This document shows, piece by piece, positions 51,646 to 58,731 of a DNA stretch of 64,000 bases. Position numbers and translations under genes: made by a program. Each line of letters begins with the position of its first letter. The first letter of the stretch is position 1. Below the pieces are notes generated by a model. The model did not search any database. It worked only from the letters and a program-made list of their open reading frames with translations, and was not told where the DNA came from. The DNA is from an uncultured bacterium. Its GTDB lineage: Bacteria > Krumholzibacteriota > Krumholzibacteriia > LZORAL124-64-63. The stretch lies in the NCBI GenBank assembly GCA_963727525.1, contig CAVSGO010000003.1:224001-288000 (forward strand), given 5' to 3'.

Positions 51646-52725
51646 TTACCGATCCAGGACCGCGAGCAACTCCTCGATGTTCCAATGTTCGGCGATGGAA
51701 CGCACCGAATCCCCGTCGCTGTTGGCCCGGTCCGGGTCGGCGCCCGCGGCCAGCAGCCGCTTGACCATCTCGCGCTGGCCTTCGAACAGGGCCCACATGG
51801 CTGGTGTGTTGCCAGCCGCGCCGACCGGATCGATCTCTACCCCGGCAGCCAGTAGCCGCGCGACCAGGTCGCTGTTGCCACCGATGGCCGCCAGATGCAG
51901 CGGTGTCAGGCCCAGGCCGGACCGCAGCGACTGATGAGCGGGATCGGCGCCGGCGGCCAGCAGCTGCCGGCCGACACCGGCATGGGCACAACGCCCGGCG
52001 ATCATCAACGGTGTGAACCCGATGGGGTCGGTGGCGTCGACCAGGGCACCGGCTGACATCAGCAACGCCACGACGCCTTCATCGCCGGCGGCGGCGGCCC
52101 GGTGCAAGGGCGAGCGGTCCACGCTGTCCCGGGCATCGACATGGCCACCGGCGGCCAGGGCGGCGCGCAAGGCAGCGGTGTCGGCGTCGGCGATCGCCGT
52201 GAACACCGCCTGATCGGCGGGTGCGACCTGTCGGGCCAGGCCCAGGCGTTCGGCCAGCGGCTGCAGCAGGGCCTCGTGCCCCCGTCGCCGGGCGACGTCC
52301 AGGGCATTGCCATGGCCGACCAGCGACGGATCCGCGCCCACCTCGAGCAGCATGGTGGTTGTGGCCAGGTAGCCGTAGTAGGCGGCCCAGTTCAGTGCGG
52401 TGTCGCCGGCCTTGTCCCGTGCGTCGGGGTCGGCACCGTGCGCCAGGAGCGTGCGGCCGACAGCCGTATTGTCGTGTTCGGCCGCCAACATCAGAGCCGT
52501 CGCGTTGTAGTAGTCGGCGTCGCGGGTTTCGGGCGACGCCCCGGCGGTGAGCCAGGTTTCGACGGCGGCCGGGTCGCCCGCGCGTACAGCGGCCAGGAGC
52601 GAGTCGGCCACGGCCACTGCAGAGGGTGCAGACTCCGTATCACTGGCCGCGAAGGCCGCGCCGGCACTTCCCAGCGCGATGACCAGGAGGCCGCCCAGAA
52701 GAGCCCGCCGCCGATCCCGCCTCAA
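51646..52725 (-). CDS. Secreted ankyrin-repeat protein
   Basis: Signal peptide and multiple TALMLAA/TPLHLAA...GADP repeats. Confidence 0.88.
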   Translation of the reverse strand: MRRDRRRALLGGLLVIALGSAGAAFAASDTESAPSAVAVADSLLAAVRAGDPAAVETWLTAGASPETRDADYYNATALMLAAEHDNTAVGRTLLAHGADPDARDKAGDTALNWAAYYGYLATTTMLLEVGADPSLVGHGNALDVARRRGHEALLQPLAERLGLARQVAPADQAVFTAIADADTAALRAALAAGGHVDARDSVDRSPLHRAAAAGDEGVVALLMSAGALVDATDPIGFTPLMIAGRCAHAGVGRQLLAAGADPAHQSLRSGLGLTPLHLAAIGGNSDLVARLLAAGVEIDPVGAAGNTPAMWALFEGQREMVKRLLAAGADPDRANSDGDSVRSIAEHWNIEELLAVLDR

Positions 52726-53060
52726 GGGCTGACCCCAGACAAACAGAAACTGCCGAGTCCGATAAATTTCATGCCGAGATCTCCTGCTATTGTCCGCAGC
52801 GAATCACCGTGCCGGTGAAGATACGGGACCCATCCAGGAGATTCAACCGGATCCGCTGGCGCACCAGAGTCAGCCGTTCGTCGTTCCGCGGCGAGGGTAT
52901 CCAGCTCGTTCTACGGCCGGTCACGATCGGTTCCGTCAATGGAACGGTGCCGACCGAGCAGGGCGTCGTACGCGAATTCTCAGGTCTCGCCCTGGTGGGC
53001 GACCAACCCACGAGATCGTGATGATTGCGCGGGCGTGCGCGCCGTGACGTCGCACCGGAC

Positions 53061-53089
53061 TTGACTCCGGTCGCCAAAGGTCCGACAAT
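53061..53089 (+). promoter_or_regulatory. Sigma70 promoter of the tusA/dsrE/metE-like operon
   Basis: TTGACT-N17-GACAAT, with the same -35 hexamer as two other promoters in the window. Confidence 0.7.
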
Positions 53090-53119
53090 TCCAGAGGTCT
53101 CCGTCGACAGGAATGTTCC

Positions 53120-53206
53120 ATGCTCCGATTCCTCGTTGTCACCGGCTTCACCTGAGGCCGCCCGCTGGACGCCGCCCGGGTCTGGCAGGCGCGTCGTGTC
53201 GGCTAG
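53120..53206 (+). CDS. Putative selenocysteine-containing leader peptide MLRFLVVTGFT-U-GRPLDAARVWQARRVG (28 aa)
   Basis: RBS AGGA (53109-53112) 7 nt before ATG 53120. In-frame TGA at 53153-53155, then a SECIS-like hairpin, then TAG at 53204-53206. Not in the supplied ORF track. Confidence 0.55.
53168..53195 (+). promoter_or_regulatory. Bacterial SECIS-like hairpin (leader)
   Basis: Apical CCG-GGTC-TGG (loop 53179-53182) on a GC-rich stem, 23 nt after the UGA. The GGUC loop matches the E. coli fdhF SECIS (GCA-GGUC-UGC). Confidence 0.6.
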
Positions 53207-53313
53207 CTGACGAGGAAACCGTCTTCTCCCGCACACACCCCCCGCCCTTCCGATCCCGGCGTCCACCCCTGGGCGTGACCTCGAGGCACATCCTCCAACC
53301 GGGATCAGCGAGC

Positions 53314-53559
53314 ATGGCGGGCTATCCGCGACACTGGAATTTCGACGACGTCTACGACTCCGTCGACCGCGGCTGCGGCGATTTCATCATCGACCTGCGT
53401 CAGGTCGTGCGCGAGCTCGAGCCGGGTGCGGTACTGATGATCGCGAGCCGCGACGCCGGTGCGCCCGTGGAAATCCCGGCCTGGTGCCGCCTCACCGGTC
53501 ATACCCTCCTCGATGCTGAGCCTCCGTTCTACCTCGTGCGCAAGCGCGAGGGCACCTGA
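53314..53559 (+). CDS. TusA/SirA-family sulfur carrier
   Basis: 81 aa. 'D..DRGCGD...LEPGAVL.I...D.GA..EIPAWCRLTGH', with CG in place of the canonical CPxP. Confidence 0.85.
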   Translation: MAGYPRHWNFDDVYDSVDRGCGDFIIDLRQVVRELEPGAVLMIASRDAGAPVEIPAWCRLTGHTLLDAEPPFYLVRKREGT

Positions 53560-53583: not shown

Positions 53584-53949
53584 ATGGCAAGCACATTCTG
53601 CGTCACGATCTCCGAATGCAAGACCAACGGCGACAAGGCGACCCTGGGTTTCGTGGTGGCGAATGCCGCCCTGGGCAGCGACAAGGACACGATGGTGTTC
53701 CTGAGTGCCGATGGCGTGTGGGCCGCAGTGAAGGGCGAGGTCGACAAGATCAATGAGGGCGACCCGTTCGCGCCCTTGAAGGACCTCGTGGAGAAGTTCG
53801 TGAAGAACGGTGGCAAGATCCTCGTCTGCTCGCCGTGCATGAAGAAGCGCGGGCTCACGGAGGCGAACCTGGTGGAAGGCGCGTCACCAGCCGGCGGCGC
53901 GGCGCTCGTGGAGTGGCTGTCCAATGGGTCGCCCAGCGTGGGGTACTAG
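53584..53949 (+). CDS. DsrE-family sulfur relay protein
   Basis: 121 aa. 'VFLSADGV', 'GGKILVCSPC.KKRG'. Confidence 0.88.
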   Translation: MASTFCVTISECKTNGDKATLGFVVANAALGSDKDTMVFLSADGVWAAVKGEVDKINEGDPFAPLKDLVEKFVKNGGKILVCSPCMKKRGLTEANLVEGASPAGGAALVEWLSNGSPSVGY

Positions 53950-53950
53950 C

Positions 53951-54698
53951 ATGAGCGATCTCGAGAGCCTGCGGCCCGATCACGTGTTCGACGGCGGCGA
54001 TCTCGACTGCGGCAGCGGTCTGGTGCTGCTCATCCGCGAGCACATGCAGAACGGTGCCCGAGGGCGGCGTGCTGGAGATGCGCAGCGTCGAGGTCACGGT
54101 GATCGACGACCTGCCACCTTGGTGCCGCATGGTAGGCCACGAGTACCTCGGCCACCTGCCGGGCCAGACAGCGCAGCAGAAGCGTTACTTCGTGCGCAAG
54201 GGTGGGGGCGAGGCTGCGCGGGCCGAGCAGCAGGCGCTCGAGGACGACAAGGCGCGCGCCCGCGAGTTCGAATGGCGACTGCGGGCGCGCGCGTCCGGCC
54301 ACCTGGCCACCACGGTCTACTGCCGCAACTTCCAGTGGACCCTGGGGCAGTCGGCAAGTTTCGAGGAGACGGACCAGCACCCGTCGGCGGTGGAGGCGCT
54401 GCTGGGTGCCGTCGCCGCCGATCTGGTCACGGGGTTCGGTACGGCGTGCGCCCAGGCCGGTCTCGATGTGGACGACGTGGAGCTCACCATCCGCGGGCGT
54501 TTGCACGATCCCATGGCCTTGCTGGGCCTTTCCGGCGGCGACCCGTCGCTCGCGTCCATCGACGCGAAGCTGTTCGCGTCCACGTTCGATGATGAGGACC
54601 GCGTGCGCGCGGTGTGGGACACGGTGGTGGCGCGTTCGCCCCTGGTGGCCACGCTGCGCAAGGCCACCGCGATGGAAACCAGGATCGCCATCGTCTGA
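53951..54698 (+). CDS. TusA-like + OsmC-like fusion protein, +1 frameshift near 54050-54054
   Basis: 'FDGGDLDCGSGLVLLIREHM' continues in the next frame as 'VPEGGVLEMRS...DLPPWCRMVGH'. C-terminal OsmC-like fold 'PSAVEALLGAVAAD...RSPL..TL'. Confidence 0.75.
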
Positions 54699-54709
54699 GG
54701 AGGACGACC

Positions 54710-55861
54710 ATGTTCAACGTGACCCAGGTGGGGAGCTGGCCCCGCTCCCGCGACCTGTTGAAAGCTCTGCGCGCCAAGCAGAAGGGTGGGCTGAGCCGCG
54801 CGGAGTTCGAACGCGTGGCCGACGCGGAGGTGCGTCGCTGCGTGCAGCATCAGGTGGACGCCGGGGTGGATGTGATCGTGGACGGCGAGCACCGTCGCGA
54901 CAACTTCTACAGCTTCGTCACCGACAAGCTCGACGGTACCCGCCTCATGTCCCTCGCCGAGATGCTCGATACGGTGGACGACAAGTCTGCCTTCGAGGAG
55001 ATGCTCTCCACCCTCGACGTACCGGCCTCGGCCATCCGCAACCCCACCTGCACCGGCAAGCTGGCCAGGCGCGAACCGCTGGCGGTGGAGGAGCTGCGCT
55101 TCGTGCAGCAGCTCACGGACAGGCCCGTGAAGGTGACGCTCCCGGGTCCGTACCTGCTCACGCGATCGATGTGGGTGGGCGCGTTCAGCAAGGCCGGCTA
55201 CGGCGACAAGACCGAGCTGGGCGACGACGTCGTGCGCATCCTGCGCGAGGAACTCACCGAGCTTCGCGATGCCGGCGCGGCCTTCGTGCAGTTCGACGAG
55301 CCAGTGCTCACCGAGATCGTGATGAGTGAGGACTGCGACCGCCGCACCTTCATGTGAGCGACGCTTGCGACCCGCCGTGATGCGGGTGCCGAGCTGGAAT
55401 ACGCGGCGGACCTGATCAACCGCATCGTCGAGGGCGTCGACGGGGTGCGCACCGGTGTGCACGTGTGCCGGGGCAACTGGAGCCGCCAGGAGGAGGTTCT
55501 GCTCACCGGAGACTACCACGCCCTGTTGCCGGCGTTCACCGCGATGCAGGTGCGTCAGTTCGTGCTGGAGTACGCCACGCCGCGCGCGGGCGAGCTGCGC
55601 GTGGTGGGCGAGAGCCTGTGCGATCGCGAGATCGGCCTGGGCTGCGTGAATCCCCGCACCGACGAGGCCGAGGACCCGGCCACCATCGTGGCGCGGGCCG
55701 AGGAGGCCCTGCAGTACTGGCGCCCGGAGCAGATCTGGCTGAATCCCGATTGCGGCTTCGGCTGCTTCGCCAACCGCTGCGTGAACGAGGAGAGCCACGC
55801 CGTGGCCAAGCTGCGCAGTATGGTGACGGCGTCGCGGATCTTGCGGGAAAGGCACGGTTGA
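54710..55861 (+). CDS. Cobalamin-independent methionine synthase II-like (MetE catalytic-domain) protein with in-frame UGA at codon 216, putative selenoprotein
   Basis: RBS GAGGAGG. Before the TGA (55355-55357): 'VGSWPR', 'DGEHRR', 'KVTLPGP', 'VQFDEP'. After it, same frame: Zn-ligand motifs 'HVCRGN', 'LEY', 'NPDCGF'. 383 aa on readthrough. Confidence 0.85.
55363..55394 (+). promoter_or_regulatory. Bacterial SECIS-like hairpin (metE-like gene)
   Basis: GCTT-GC-(G)-ACCCGC / loop CGTGAT / GCGGGT-GC-(C)-GAGC. The loop lies 18 nt after the UGA and has GU at positions 2-3. Confidence 0.65.
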
Positions 55862-55924: not shown

Positions 55925-57769
55925 TCAGATCTGCTTCCGGAACCAGAGCACGATCCCGTACCCGAAGACACCAAACACGACAGACACGATGATGAGCATC
56001 GCCAGATCAAACCCCGACCCCGAGAGTATCTCGATACCCCAGCGTCCGCCCAACCTGATCGCGTGATCGTCGACAAGGCCCTTGAGATTTCCGACGAGAT
56101 CGAAGCCGAACGTACCGATTGCGATCAACCCGAGAAGATATGCGAGTCGGTTGTCATTGCGCTTGGCAATTCGCGCTTCACGATCCTGCGTCTGCTTCTC
56201 GACGTTGTCGACCATCGCTTCGATCGCGGCGACGTTGCGCGCGATGCCGCGCCGCGCCTCGAGAGCCTCGAACGTGTCCTTTTCGGTGTCGTATCGAAAT
56301 ACGTTGATGTAGCGCTTCTGCTGATAGTCGCTGACCTGCCGCCTGCGGAAGGCGTAGAAGAGTTCGGTCGCTGCGCGGAGATCGTGCTTCTCGTCGGCGC
56401 GAATCACCTCCCGGAGCAGGGACGTGGCGCTCCGCTCGTAGGCGCGCACGAAGAACTCATTGTGCATCGCGAGAGCGTGGATGAGAAACGCGTAGGGGCA
56501 GGTCCCGATCCAGTCATTGCCGGCCTCGAGGCTGCGGGAGCGAGACACGAACGTCATCAGTGCGCGAGGATTCGCGAAACGAATGAAGAAGCTCTCCTCT
56601 TCCTGTTCGGCCGTCGCCGGGTAGATCGGATCGAGGCTGTCGAGGACCTCGGAAGCATCCTGATTGATGAAGTCGATGATATTCTGGGTGAAGCCTGCAA
56701 GGAACAGATAGATCAGGTCTTCCTTGGCGAACTTCTCGATCTCGGCAAGGGGAAGTTTGACACGGGCGAGCCCGGAAGACTGGGCCGCGTCGCGACAATC
56801 CGTGACGAACTCCGGATACCGATCGAACGCATCCATCGTGACGCGGTCCATCCGCCTCACGCGAATCGGTTCACCGTGTTCACCCGGCCGGGACGGCGGT
56901 ACCAGCGCCTCGAAAAACTCGCGATCCTGAAAGAAGAACATGTAACGAGCGCGCGGCATCATCAGGCCAGGTATCTCGAGGAACGCGTCTTTCTCGATGT
57001 ACAATTCGAACGGGCTCGTGGCGGGAGGTCGTGACGCCGATGAATTGCGGATCCGGCGTTCCAGGTCCGAGAAGTCACGGTCGAATCGGGATGCGACCCA
57101 CGCCCACAGCGAGATGGTCTGGCCGCCGACAGGTTCACGCACGCAGACCGAATCCAGAGGCAGGATATGCGTCGGACGCGCCAGGACATGGGAGGCGCGC
57201 CCGTGCCCGCCGTAGCGAAATTCCTTGGGGGCGACGGCTTTCTGGAGCAAGCCTAGGCGGTAGAAATCAGCCGCCGAGTGCTCGTACGGTACCGAAAACG
57301 ACAAGTGGTAGGAAAGCGCGTAGGCGAGATGGACGTACCAGAATCGCCGCGCCCGCACCATGCGCACGTCTGGCTCTTCGAGATCGACCTCGAACGTCGT
57401 GCCCTCCGTCGTCCAGGTGATGGACCGCGGCATGTGCAACTCGAGTTCCTCGCCTTCGGGACGCCCCGAAACGTCGAGCAGAAAATCCAGGACCCGACCG
57501 TTACGCTCGCGGTTGGCGATATCGTTGAATAGCGGGTCCATCGCTTCCTGCAGGTCGCGAGTTCCGAGATACTCGCGGGGCGCGGGTGCTCCAGGGGCCT
57601 TGCCGCTCGACGATGCTTTTGGCATCCCCGATCGCGCCGGATCGCGATTCTCCGCGCTGAGGAATTCCTGGAACGTCGCCGGGAGTTCGTCGTGTCCGAT
57701 GTATAGCGAAATCGTGAAAGATAGTGTCCTGTCCGTACAGCTTTCCCATATCAGGCGAGCCTCGCTCAT
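55925..57769 (-). CDS. Hypothetical protein with CorA-like architecture (large soluble domain, coiled coil, two C-terminal TM helices)
   Basis: RBS GGAGG. Long helix 'IEAMVDNVEKQTQDREARIAKRNDNRL' then two hydrophobic segments and a basic tail. No GMN motif. Confidence 0.6.
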   Translation of the reverse strand: MSEARLIWESCTDRTLSFTISLYIGHDELPATFQEFLSAENRDPARSGMPKASSSGKAPGAPAPREYLGTRDLQEAMDPLFNDIANRERNGRVLDFLLDVSGRPEGEELELHMPRSITWTTEGTTFEVDLEEPDVRMVRARRFWYVHLAYALSYHLSFSVPYEHSAADFYRLGLLQKAVAPKEFRYGGHGRASHVLARPTHILPLDSVCVREPVGGQTISLWAWVASRFDRDFSDLERRIRNSSASRPPATSPFELYIEKDAFLEIPGLMMPRARYMFFFQDREFFEALVPPSRPGEHGEPIRVRRMDRVTMDAFDRYPEFVTDCRDAAQSSGLARVKLPLAEIEKFAKEDLIYLFLAGFTQNIIDFINQDASEVLDSLDPIYPATAEQEEESFFIRFANPRALMTFVSRSRSLEAGNDWIGTCPYAFLIHALAMHNEFFVRAYERSATSLLREVIRADEKHDLRAATELFYAFRRRQVSDYQQKRYINVFRYDTEKDTFEALEARRGIARNVAAIEAMVDNVEKQTQDREARIAKRNDNRLAYLLGLIAIGTFGFDLVGNLKGLVDDHAIRLGGRWGIEILSGSGFDLAMLIIVSVVFGVFGYGIVLWFRKQI

Positions 57770-57813
57770 GGGCGCCTCCACAGGTGTCGCTAATTCTGGC
57801 GGTCCAACAGTCA

Positions 57814-58731
57814 TCATCCGAGCGCATGAATCGCGTCGCGCAGATTGACCGGACGCCGAGGCGCGATCCGGCCGATACCGTCCGCTGTCGCGACACGCGC
57901 CAGAAGCATCGTCGGGTCGAGAAGGGGGATCTCCGTACCCGCGACGCACATGTCCGAGAGTAATTCGACCTGACGCCGCGCGACATCGCTATTCTCGATC
58001 GCCGCGCCCTTCAAGACCGAGATGCCGAAGAAGCCGCGGAGATGGTGTTCGAGGATGCACGCCGGCACGGTGGTTGCGGGTGCACCGACAACGGAATATA
58101 CCAGATGCGACTCGGCCACCTGCCCGGGCGAGAGCGGCGGCTGGATATAGGGAAAGTCCACGACACGGGCTCCGCGCCGGGCCCAGACACGCAGGCGATC
58201 GAATTGATCGAGGCCGGTGTACCTCGTGTCGCGCTCATAGGCTTCGGCGCTCATCGCAAACGGATCGTTTTGCTCGATGAACATCAAAGGACGTGTCTCG
58301 AATCGGGCCGAGATCGTCTGGCGAACGGCCGCGAGCATGGGCGTGAATCGGCCAGAGCCGCGGGCCGCCTCATCGATGTAGATGTAGTTGAGGTTTGCCG
58401 TGATAGCATGCTGGTACGCGATGGTGATGACGTTGGCACCACCGACACGAAGACCCGCCGCGATGTCATCGGCAACGAGGCAGATCTCGCTAAACGCACC
58501 GTACTTGGCCGCAAGTTCCTCGTATGCCGGCGAATCGTTCAATGCCAGGCACCGCTCGAAGCCGCTGACATCTTCCTTCTCGTCGGGGAGGACGAAAGCT
58601 CGATCGTAGCCGGCGTAGAATTCCGCGAAGACCTCGCTGCCCGGCTGGCTGGTCGCGTAAACCCGAAGGCCCTCTGCCGTCGTCAAGGCCCAGTCGCCAG
58701 CTGCGAGTCGCAGCGGTCTGGCGTGCGTCAT
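57814..58731 (-). CDS. GNAT-fold acetyltransferase-like protein
   Basis: 'AFVLPDEKE', 'NLNYIYIDEAARGSG' (motif A-like), 'R.RVWARRG...FPYIQPPL'. Confidence 0.65.
   Translation of the reverse strand: MTHARPLRLAAGDWALTTAEGLRVYATSQPGSEVFAEFYAGYDRAFVLPDEKEDVSGFERCLALNDSPAYEELAAKYGAFSEICLVADDIAAGLRVGGANVITIAYQHAITANLNYIYIDEAARGSGRFTPMLAAVRQTISARFETRPLMFIEQNDPFAMSAEAYERDTRYTGLDQFDRLRVWARRGARVVDFPYIQPPLSPGQVAESHLVYSVVGAPATTVPACILEHHLRGFFGISVLKGAAIENSDVARRQVELLSDMCVAGTEIPLLDPTMLLARVATADGIGRIAPRRPVNLRDAIHALG

Follow-up and report, generated by a model that had tools for sequence, protein, structure and literature searches.

How does a bacterium match the expression of an operon that contains a selenoprotein gene to its own capacity to insert selenocysteine (Sec)? 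Control of bacterial selenoprotein genes by selenium status is poorly understood, and the cases known from the literature considered here are the SelB operator of E. coli selAB and the polarity observed in Treponema primitia fdhF-Sec. The question is raised by a leader region in DNA from an uncultured bacterium of the Krumholzibacteriota (class Krumholzibacteriia, LZORAL124-64-63), which was analysed as a window of 64,000 nucleotides (positions 224,001 to 288,000 of contig CAVSGO010000003.1, assembly GCA_963727525.1). The leader region has a divergent ankyrin-repeat gene on one side and a tusA-like gene on the other, and it contains a short upstream open reading frame (uORF) with an in-frame UGA followed by a hairpin resembling a selenocysteine insertion sequence (SECIS). 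The original prediction for this locus was an attenuator in which the fate of the ribosome at the UGA, and with it the choice between alternative helices, reports on Sec decoding. The core of that proposal, a cis-acting leader open reading frame (ORF) that decodes Sec, is supported by the comparisons described here, and its mechanistic details are not. We consider it probable, judging from sequence comparison, that the leader ORF with its SECIS-served UGA couples expression of the operon in cis to Sec decoding. The elements of the leader in the window are the following.

53061..53089, forward strand: promoter-like site of the sigma-70 type, TTGACT-17-GACAAT, with the uORF start 31 nt downstream
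53109..53112, forward strand: AGGA ribosome-binding site (RBS), 7 nt before the ATG
53120..53206, forward strand: leader ORF of 28 codons including the UGA, with the ATG at 53120 and the stop codon TAG at 53204-53206
53153..53155, forward strand: in-frame UGA, codon 12, directly after the conserved Gly-Phe-Thr codons
53170..53191, forward strand: SECIS-like hairpin, a 7-bp stem with one mismatch or bulge and the loop CGGGUCU at 53177-53183
53129..53151, forward strand: 5' strand of the helix P1/P1', uORF codons 4-11; the helix encloses the UGA and the SECIS
53196..53217, forward strand: 3' strand of P1/P1', reaching from the last uORF codons across the stop codon and on through GACGAGGAA
53223..53251, forward strand: C-rich, G-poor tract of rut-like composition, in which 19 of the 29 nt are C and 2 are G
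53257..53265, forward strand: CGGCGTCCA, a perfect complement of the SECIS base (53166-53174) and a possible anti-SECIS strand
53268..53286, forward strand: second hairpin, H4, with the SECIS-type loop CGUGAC at 53274-53279, not preceded by a UGA; 28 nt separate its end from the tusA ATG
53252..53306, forward strand: hairpin formed by GATCCCGG (53252-53259) and CCGGGATC (53299-53306), which folds in the window and encloses H4

The uORF encodes the peptide MLRFLVVTGFT-U-GRPLDAARVWQARRVG, and the loop of its hairpin, which contains GGUC, starts 21 nt past the UGA. The uORF, its RBS, the UGA at codon 12 and the GGUC-loop hairpin were all found where the original prediction had placed them. It had also paired TTCCTCGTT (53129-53137) with GACGAGGAA (53209-53217) around the SECIS; the two strands are complementary, the pairing appears in the fold of the window, and the enclosing helix is conserved with compensatory changes among relatives. 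A scan for promoter-like sites found one at the leader, where 0.2 were expected from shuffles. The folding energy of the window leader is no better than that of shuffled sequences (z = -1.9 for the whole leader and +0.68 for the piece with the UGA and hairpin), and the minimum-free-energy folds of whole leaders are unlike one another among orthologues. Because the single-sequence z-scores are at chance level, the case for the element rests on cross-genome comparison and not on folding. No Rfam family reaches its gathering score in the window, a search of 53040-53340 at E values up to 10 returned only two meaningless long non-coding RNA matches, and no NCBIfam model matches the leader peptide. 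A 148-aa in-frame ORF (53113-53559) would make the leader an N-terminal extension of TusA; it was rejected because the orthologues all start M[AS]G.P.HW (in full, a conserved M[AS]G.P.HW.FD) and their upstream parts are unalignable as protein.

Is the leader found wherever the tusA locus is found? Orthologous tusA loci were gathered without regard to their leaders, using the DsrE protein in relatives and searches with a TusA alignment. The alignment gave 15 loci in genome contigs, one of them a poor partial match, and 9 loci in metagenome contigs, one of them poor. Leader ORFs were then detected by a script that lists ORFs reading through one TGA. An RBS-proximal uORF with a TGA at codon 9-12 is present at 14 of the 15 genome-contig loci (the window and L015-L028), and the fifteenth, L023, which has only 172 nt of upstream sequence, has the same ORF with a TTG start. 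The uORF was listed at 6 of 8 metagenome-contig loci; of the remaining two, L031 ends 86 nt upstream and L036 has the sequence of L024. In total there are 24 distinct leaders, 12 in group 1, which includes the window, 11 in group 2 and one divergent, and all 24 carry the UGA at codon 9-12 with a spacing appropriate for a SECIS. The uORF, UGA and hairpin therefore recur in every readable leader, which was the conservation test set beforehand. The leaders front tusA-dsrE-tusA/osmC-metE(Sec) operons in 22 cases and a double-cubane reductase operon in the other two, and they all come from metagenome-assembled genomes (MAGs) of one family, labelled Krumholzibacteriia in several records.

The two groups differ in the peptide they encode and share their initiation region. 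Group 1 peptides read ..GFT-U and then ..DAAR(V/D).., with the UGA at codon 11 in 10 of 12 leaders and at codons 9 and 12 in the remaining two; group 2 peptides read M..RRRL-U..P(V/C)PAVRR... The length of the orthologous uORFs ranges from 24 to 32 codons. An RBS region GUCGA(A/C)AGGA is common to both groups, and AGGA- or GGAG-type RBS cores lie ahead of the uORF starts in the other leaders. In L015 and L026 promoter-like sites precede the uORF by 34 and 40 nt, and none scored above the scan threshold in L024 or L027. In the alignment the leader core is far more conserved than its flanks. The divergent leader is that of genome G033 (L011, identical to L024 and L036; 2905-3003), whose uORF, MVSAWDRPS-U.., has its UGA at codon 10 and runs on into tusA without a change of frame; tusA is also preceded by its own strong AAGGAGG site. 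This leader matches neither of the covariance models described below, and it might represent a leader in decay or an N-terminal extension that depends on Sec.

The source genome (4.66 Mb in 8 contigs, 96.7% complete) encodes a SelB wing domain (52.6 bits) and a tRNA-Sec gene (70.4 bits), and the operon behind the leader provides a SECIS for comparison. Its genes in the window are as follows.

53314..53559, forward strand: tusA-like gene, 81 aa, the first structural gene
53584..53949, forward strand: dsrE-like gene
53951..54698, forward strand: tusA-OsmC fusion gene; a 1-nt insertion near 54046 sets it apart from its orthologues
54710..55861, forward strand: MetE-like (Meth_synt_2, 115 bits) selenoprotein gene with an in-frame UGA at 55355-55357
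55370-55375 with 55382-55387, forward strand: stem of the SECIS of the MetE-like gene, loop CGUGAU

The in-frame TGA of the MetE-like gene occupies the same column (RTFM*ATLA) in 22 of 22 tblastn matches from related loci. In 17 distinct sequences it is followed, 18 nt on, by a SECIS with the stem ACCCGC/GCGGGU and the loop CGUGAY or CGGGAY. The conserved TGA column and hairpin, together with SelB and tRNA-Sec, therefore establish that the operon holds a true selenoprotein gene with a SECIS typical of the lineage. Methionine synthase is not mentioned in the main text of a 2026 review of prokaryotic selenoproteomes (PMC13188914, apart from its supplements), and the MetE-like protein may on this sequence evidence be an unlisted selenoprotein family.

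Bacterial SECIS elements of the fdhF type have an apical loop roughly 16-37 nt past the UGA, with G and U in the loop. The leader hairpin agrees with this description in its loop distance and its G/U loop motif, and it follows an in-frame UGA in an ORF preceded by an RBS. The distance from the UGA to the loop is 21 nt in group 1, apart from 18 nt in L026; in group 2 it is 20 nt, and the MetE-like gene has 18 nt. The loop of group 1 leaders, CG(U/G)G(U/A)(C/U), and that of the MetE SECIS, CG(U/G)GA(U/C), have a matching consensus with the same U/G alternation, and the group 2 hairpin reads CCCGGC-GGUC(C)-GUCGGG. Of the 104,768 TGA triplets in the genome, 95 (0.09%), the leader and the MetE site among them, fit a descriptor that asks for a CG[U/G]G[A/U][C/U] loop 16-24 nt past the TGA on a stem of 6 bp or more. 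Four near-identical stretches of the source genome that also fit, with the loop CGUGAU (C7:60139, C7:2343412, C7:2340515 and C8:262360), are probably copies of a multicopy element.

The structure around the SECIS is conserved and shows compensatory changes. In P1/P1' of group 1 the codons before the UGA pair with the last codons of the uORF, the stop codon, which lies within the 3' strand, and the following GACGAG. Among 8 group 1 sequences 86.1% of cells are paired, versus 26-47% when the partner strand is slid, and 6 pairs have changed on both sides, which was equalled by 1 of 500 shuffles. When all 12 sequences are aligned to the model, 4 of which played no part in building it, 85.8% of cells are paired versus 29-42% slid, with compensatory changes in 9 of 23 pairs, again equalled by 1 of 500 shuffles; the model-guided alignment favours the model and the sequences are kin, so these figures are not probabilities. 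Within the P1/P1' helix itself 8 of 12 pairs have changed on both sides. The SECIS stem of group 1 is almost invariant, with 92.9% of cells paired across the 12 sequences. In 10 group 2 sequences 93% of cells are paired versus 40-49% slid, and compensatory changes occur only in a third hairpin, H3. The group 2 uORF ends 13 nt before H3, 3-4 nt before it, or within its loop.

The reading frame has been maintained as well. Measured against the majority, the indels in the uORF come in multiples of three: ahead of the UGA they span 3 and 9 nt, L026 differs by 3 nt in the stretch from UGA to SECIS, and L017 and L019 differ by 3 nt towards the end of the uORF. The exception is the window itself, where a 1-nt insertion makes TAG the stop codon one codon ahead of the usual UGA stop. 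The position of the uORF stop is thus held within one to three codons. Is the peptide maintained for its own sake? Variability is flat over the codon positions, codons -8 to -5 giving 0.48, 0.41 and 0.43, which suggests that selection does not act on most of the peptide. This, the lack of a common motif between the groups and the varying tails argue, at the level of sequence, against a functional peptide.

Covariance models of the two groups (R1 for group 1, R2 for group 2) were used to follow the leader across genomes, with one match found per genome. R1 matches 9 and R2 matches 8 of the 91 genomes of the family, 17 of 91 in all. A tenth R1 match (32 bits) was counted as false as it lies in coding-looking sequence, and matches below 33 bits (L045-L051 and L040) were judged false since they are coding-looking and have no UGA motif. 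In a sample of 151 genomes from the phylum all convincing leader matches fall in the one family, and there are none in 90 genomes of eight other families. The source genome has no further copy detectable by regular expression or covariance model (next best match 18 bits). SelB is present in 88 of the 91 family genomes, and a contrast between SelB-positive and SelB-negative genomes is therefore uninformative. The MetE-like gene occurs in 16 of the 151 genomes of the phylum sample. The 12 MetE-bearing genomes of the same family all have the leader, 11 by covariance model, including the source genome, and one in the divergent form.

The leader also occurs without the MetE-like gene. Genomes G147 and G163, of different genera, have a group-1-type leader ahead of an operon for a double-cubane-cluster reductase (NF040772, 469 bits), a BcrAD/BadFG-type activase and an enoyl-CoA hydratase-like protein (L052, G147:C20:12300-24000; L064, G163:C19), and neither genome has a MetE-like match. 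The occurrence of the leader in front of at least two types of operon indicates that it is a portable module. A Sec codon at the junction of the activase and enoyl-CoA hydratase-like genes was considered and rejected, as G+C at third codon positions (GC3) collapses past the TGA and the next gene starts later. The L064 reductase gene has an internal TAG where G147 encodes Glu, and in G147 an AT-rich palindrome (ATTGAAT..ATTCAAT) lies ahead of the reductase RBS. Outside the family, f2 homologues of the MetE-like protein are 55-58% identical and are encoded in a different operon layout with no leader; the homologue in G052 (55% identical) has Cys at the Sec column.

How could decoding in the leader be passed on to the operon? 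Two features lie between the uORF and tusA that could serve this step. The original prediction had described the C-rich tract as rut-like, and in terms of composition this was borne out, as such a tract recurs past the uORF stop in most group 1 leaders. The 45 nt past the stop contain 44-51% C and 16-24% G in 6 of 8 group 1 leaders, and the C-skew of this segment in the window, 0.53, belongs to a class (at least 0.5) that makes up 0.25% of genome windows. The other feature is H4, which 9 of 13 group-1-type leaders possess, the two double-cubane leaders among them, when about 1.4 would be expected from the genome background. Its loop is located about 40 nt or more from the start codon. An alternative pairing is also present in some leaders. 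The helix between 53166-53174 and 53257-53265 has 9 bp, a length reached by 0.3% of shuffles, and compensatory changes distinguish the version in the window from that in L015, and the version in L044 from that in L064.

A number of observations weigh against our reading or against particular parts of it. The anti-SECIS helix just described, 7-9 bp of perfect pairing just 5' of H4, is present in only 4 of 12 group 1 leaders. The original prediction had suggested a different alternative pairing, CCGGG with CCCGG, which is weaker than this 9-bp helix. It had also proposed that GATCCCGG and CCGGGATC pair across the likely tusA RBS; the pairing is present, its sequence is not conserved, and equilibrium (partition-function) modelling of 16 leaders with ribosome footprints placed at the UGA, at the uORF stop and over the whole uORF gave no consistent change in accessibility of the RBS. 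A scan of segment duplexes against shuffles was not significant overall, the duplex z-scores are weak, and GC-rich leaders such as these form helices readily. No canonical intrinsic terminator is present in the window leader or in L022, L024, L027, L015 and L026, and terminator-like sites are unenriched in the 40-60 kb part of the window (6 found, 8.5 expected). The counts of leaders given above are not independent because all come from related MAGs in one family. There is no selenoprotein gene among the three genes of the double-cubane operon, which weakens the simple rationale that the leader avoids production of a truncated selenoprotein. Two genomes of the sister family f6 (G089 and G113) carry a 77%-identical, Sec-containing MetE-like gene in a related operon and have neither a UGA uORF ahead of dsrE nor a covariance-model match. 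Their operon (L068/L073 in G089, L069/L072 in G113) has the order dsrE, tusA/osmC, SDR, a 713-aa ORF and metE(Sec), with no separate tusA. Such an operon can therefore do without the leader, which is a family-specific addition. Finally, Gly-Phe-Thr before the UGA is kept in 11, 12 and 12 of 12 group 1 leaders, with three synonymous third-base changes, one of which disrupts an RNA pair. This indicates some constraint at the level of the peptide. The last residues of the nascent chain may matter, perhaps in the competition between release factor and SelB.

The lack of a terminator, the C-rich tract, H4 and the null result for the RBS together favour a co-transcriptional mechanism. The capacity sensed would be that of Sec-tRNASec with SelB and GTP. 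When Sec is inserted, the ribosome would reach the uORF stop, melting the hairpin there (P1 in group 1, H3 in group 2) and shielding the C-rich tract, and transcription would proceed into tusA with the operon on. When Sec is not inserted, release at the UGA would allow the full hairpin to form and leave the C-rich RNA bare, and transcription would be attenuated, either by Rho or by the hairpin without a U-tract. H4, close to the tusA start, may add a direct SelB-dependent control. That the operon is on, and not off, when Sec is available is our inference, and so is the step at which control acts.

Could the uORF be a gene in its own right? It may be proposed that it encodes a selenopeptide of 25-32 residues that acts with the proteins of the operon, for instance as a carrier of selenium or sulfur or as a substrate, and has no regulatory role. 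The RBS, the SECIS at the right distance, the conserved frame and the retention of Gly-Phe-Thr before Sec are all compatible with this, as is the Leu before Sec in group 2, which is kept despite a synonymous CTG>CTA change, and in the 22 leaders of tusA operons the ORF adjoins sulfur-relay genes of the TusA/DsrE type. However, the same type of ORF precedes an unrelated operon, and the ..GFT-U and ..RRRL-U groups have no common motif, even though their operons encode proteins that are 70-80% identical. The Sec has no conserved Cys partner nearby, the C-terminal tails vary in both length and sequence over the range of 24-32 codons, codon positions 1, 2 and 3 are equally variable outside the SECIS, and the conservation that follows the UGA coincides with the SECIS stem and loop. 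With no NCBIfam family to place it in, a selenopeptide is an unlikely explanation. A SelB operator of the E. coli selAB type, in which SelB with Sec-tRNA represses or activates translation and the ORF and UGA are secondary, would account for two hairpins bearing the loop motif of the lineage, one of which, H4, has no UGA, lies shortly before tusA and is found more often than the background predicts; the E. coli element, as described in a preprint (bioRxiv 10.64898/2026.03.03.709296), is a precedent. An operator alone has no need of a start codon, an RBS, frame-keeping indels or a UGA spacing kept in all 24 leaders. H4 is missing in 4 of 13 group 1 leaders and in group 2, and its distance from the start codon differs from the 3 nt that, according to that preprint, separate the E. 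coli element from the Shine-Dalgarno sequence. We regard control by SelB binding alone as a little more doubtful than the selenopeptide.

The remaining alternative is a structured leader RNA that senses some other ligand or a protein, with the UGA and SECIS-like loop coincidental, or an element with no function. The chance-level folding of the single sequence, the ease with which GC-rich leaders form helices and the restriction to one family, in which shared ancestry inflates the apparent conservation, would all be expected if this were so. It is nevertheless difficult to reconcile with a core far more conserved than its flanks, with the compensatory changes in P1 and H3, with a loop consensus that is the same as that of the operon's true SECIS, and with a UGA, RBS and frame kept in two divergent groups and two operon contexts. 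Since Rfam also offers no match, we consider this alternative improbable, the most so of the three.

If the leader ORF does couple the operon to Sec decoding, how does it compare with known leaders? The attenuators of amino-acid operons (trp, his, leu, thr) have a promoter-proximal short ORF with codons for the sensed amino acid and alternative helices. The leader described here is similar in being a short, conserved, RBS-preceded ORF located between promoter and first gene, with a codon for the amino acid that would be sensed, and in being embedded in RNA helices; as noted, the competing helix is limited to a minority of leaders and the modelling gave no consistent switch. It differs in that the sensed codon is a recoded stop, UGA, which needs SelB and a SECIS inside the leader ORF, in that failed decoding would lead to termination by release factor and not to stalling alone, and in that the scanned leaders have no canonical U-tract terminator. 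The logic is likely the reverse of that of trp, with the operon on when the amino acid is available. In tnaC-tnaAB, which is Rho-dependent, free tryptophan causes the nascent peptide to arrest the ribosome when it is at the stop codon. The leader stop studied here likewise adjoins a C-rich, G-poor tract that could be a loading site for Rho, and induction with the amino acid is proposed in both; what differs is that arrival at the stop would depend on Sec insertion upstream. The hairpin is like an fdhF-type SECIS in its position about 20 nt past an in-frame UGA and in the G and U of its apical loop, and unlike it in that the host ORF has only 24-32 codons and belongs to no recognisable protein family.

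Two selenium-related systems are closer. The SECIS-like element in the 5' untranslated region of E. coli selAB (Thanbichler and Boeck) mediates regulation by SelB, according to bioRxiv 10.64898/2026.03.03.709296. Both are SECIS-type leader hairpins, and H4, having no UGA, resembles the selAB element in particular. The selAB element lacks both an ORF and a UGA, and what it controls is the Sec machinery, whereas the main hairpin here serves the in-frame UGA of a leader ORF and the genes downstream are not sel genes. For Treponema primitia fdhF-Sec, PMC3892789 reports that translation through the SECIS raises transcription elongation. There, as is proposed for the leader, passage of the ribosome over a Sec UGA and SECIS decides downstream transcription. 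The effect in T. primitia takes place inside a selenoprotein gene, whereas here there is a dedicated leader ORF, even ahead of an operon that has no selenoprotein.

A full-text literature search found no description of a Sec-containing leader ORF, and none is given in the main text of the 2026 review (PMC13188914), its supplements lying outside this statement. The sequence comparison leaves about an even chance that this is the first attenuator for the 21st amino acid, that it sets the expression of a small selenium-linked regulon made up of the TusA/DsrE relay operon ending in the MetE-like selenoprotein and, in other genera, the double-cubane reductase operon, and that a second SelB-type hairpin provides an extra input. 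If so, leader-peptide attenuation would extend to a recoded stop codon with Sec decoding as the sensor, and the leader would be a compact natural reporter of Sec-insertion capacity, consisting of one promoter and about 200 nt with a UGA and a SECIS. Genes under its control could then be marked as selenium-linked. For the double-cubane reductase operon the only reported tie to selenium that was found comes from a preprint (10.1101/2022.07.06.499078), in which double-cubane proteins are statistically associated with a selenoprotein system. Since the element is small and sharply defined and makes clear mutational predictions, the hypothesis is directly testable.

Some features of the surrounding DNA, which has a G+C content of 66.7% in the window, may be noted. 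A genome-wide GC3 screen for other selenoprotein genes gave 94 candidates, mostly neighbouring genes that share one frame. The ankyrin-repeat protein gene that lies upstream of the leader promoter occupies 51646-52725 of the reverse strand and matches Ank_2 with 131.7 bits. Downstream of the operon, a convergent ORF of 674 aa (55925-57949, reverse strand) has a strong GC3 signal and no Pfam or NCBIfam match. Within the operon, the 1-nt insertion listed above is an extra G after ..CAGAAC that interrupts the frame of the tusA-OsmC fusion gene. The frame is intact in L026, L016 and L024, and the insertion is either an assembly error or a recent frameshift.

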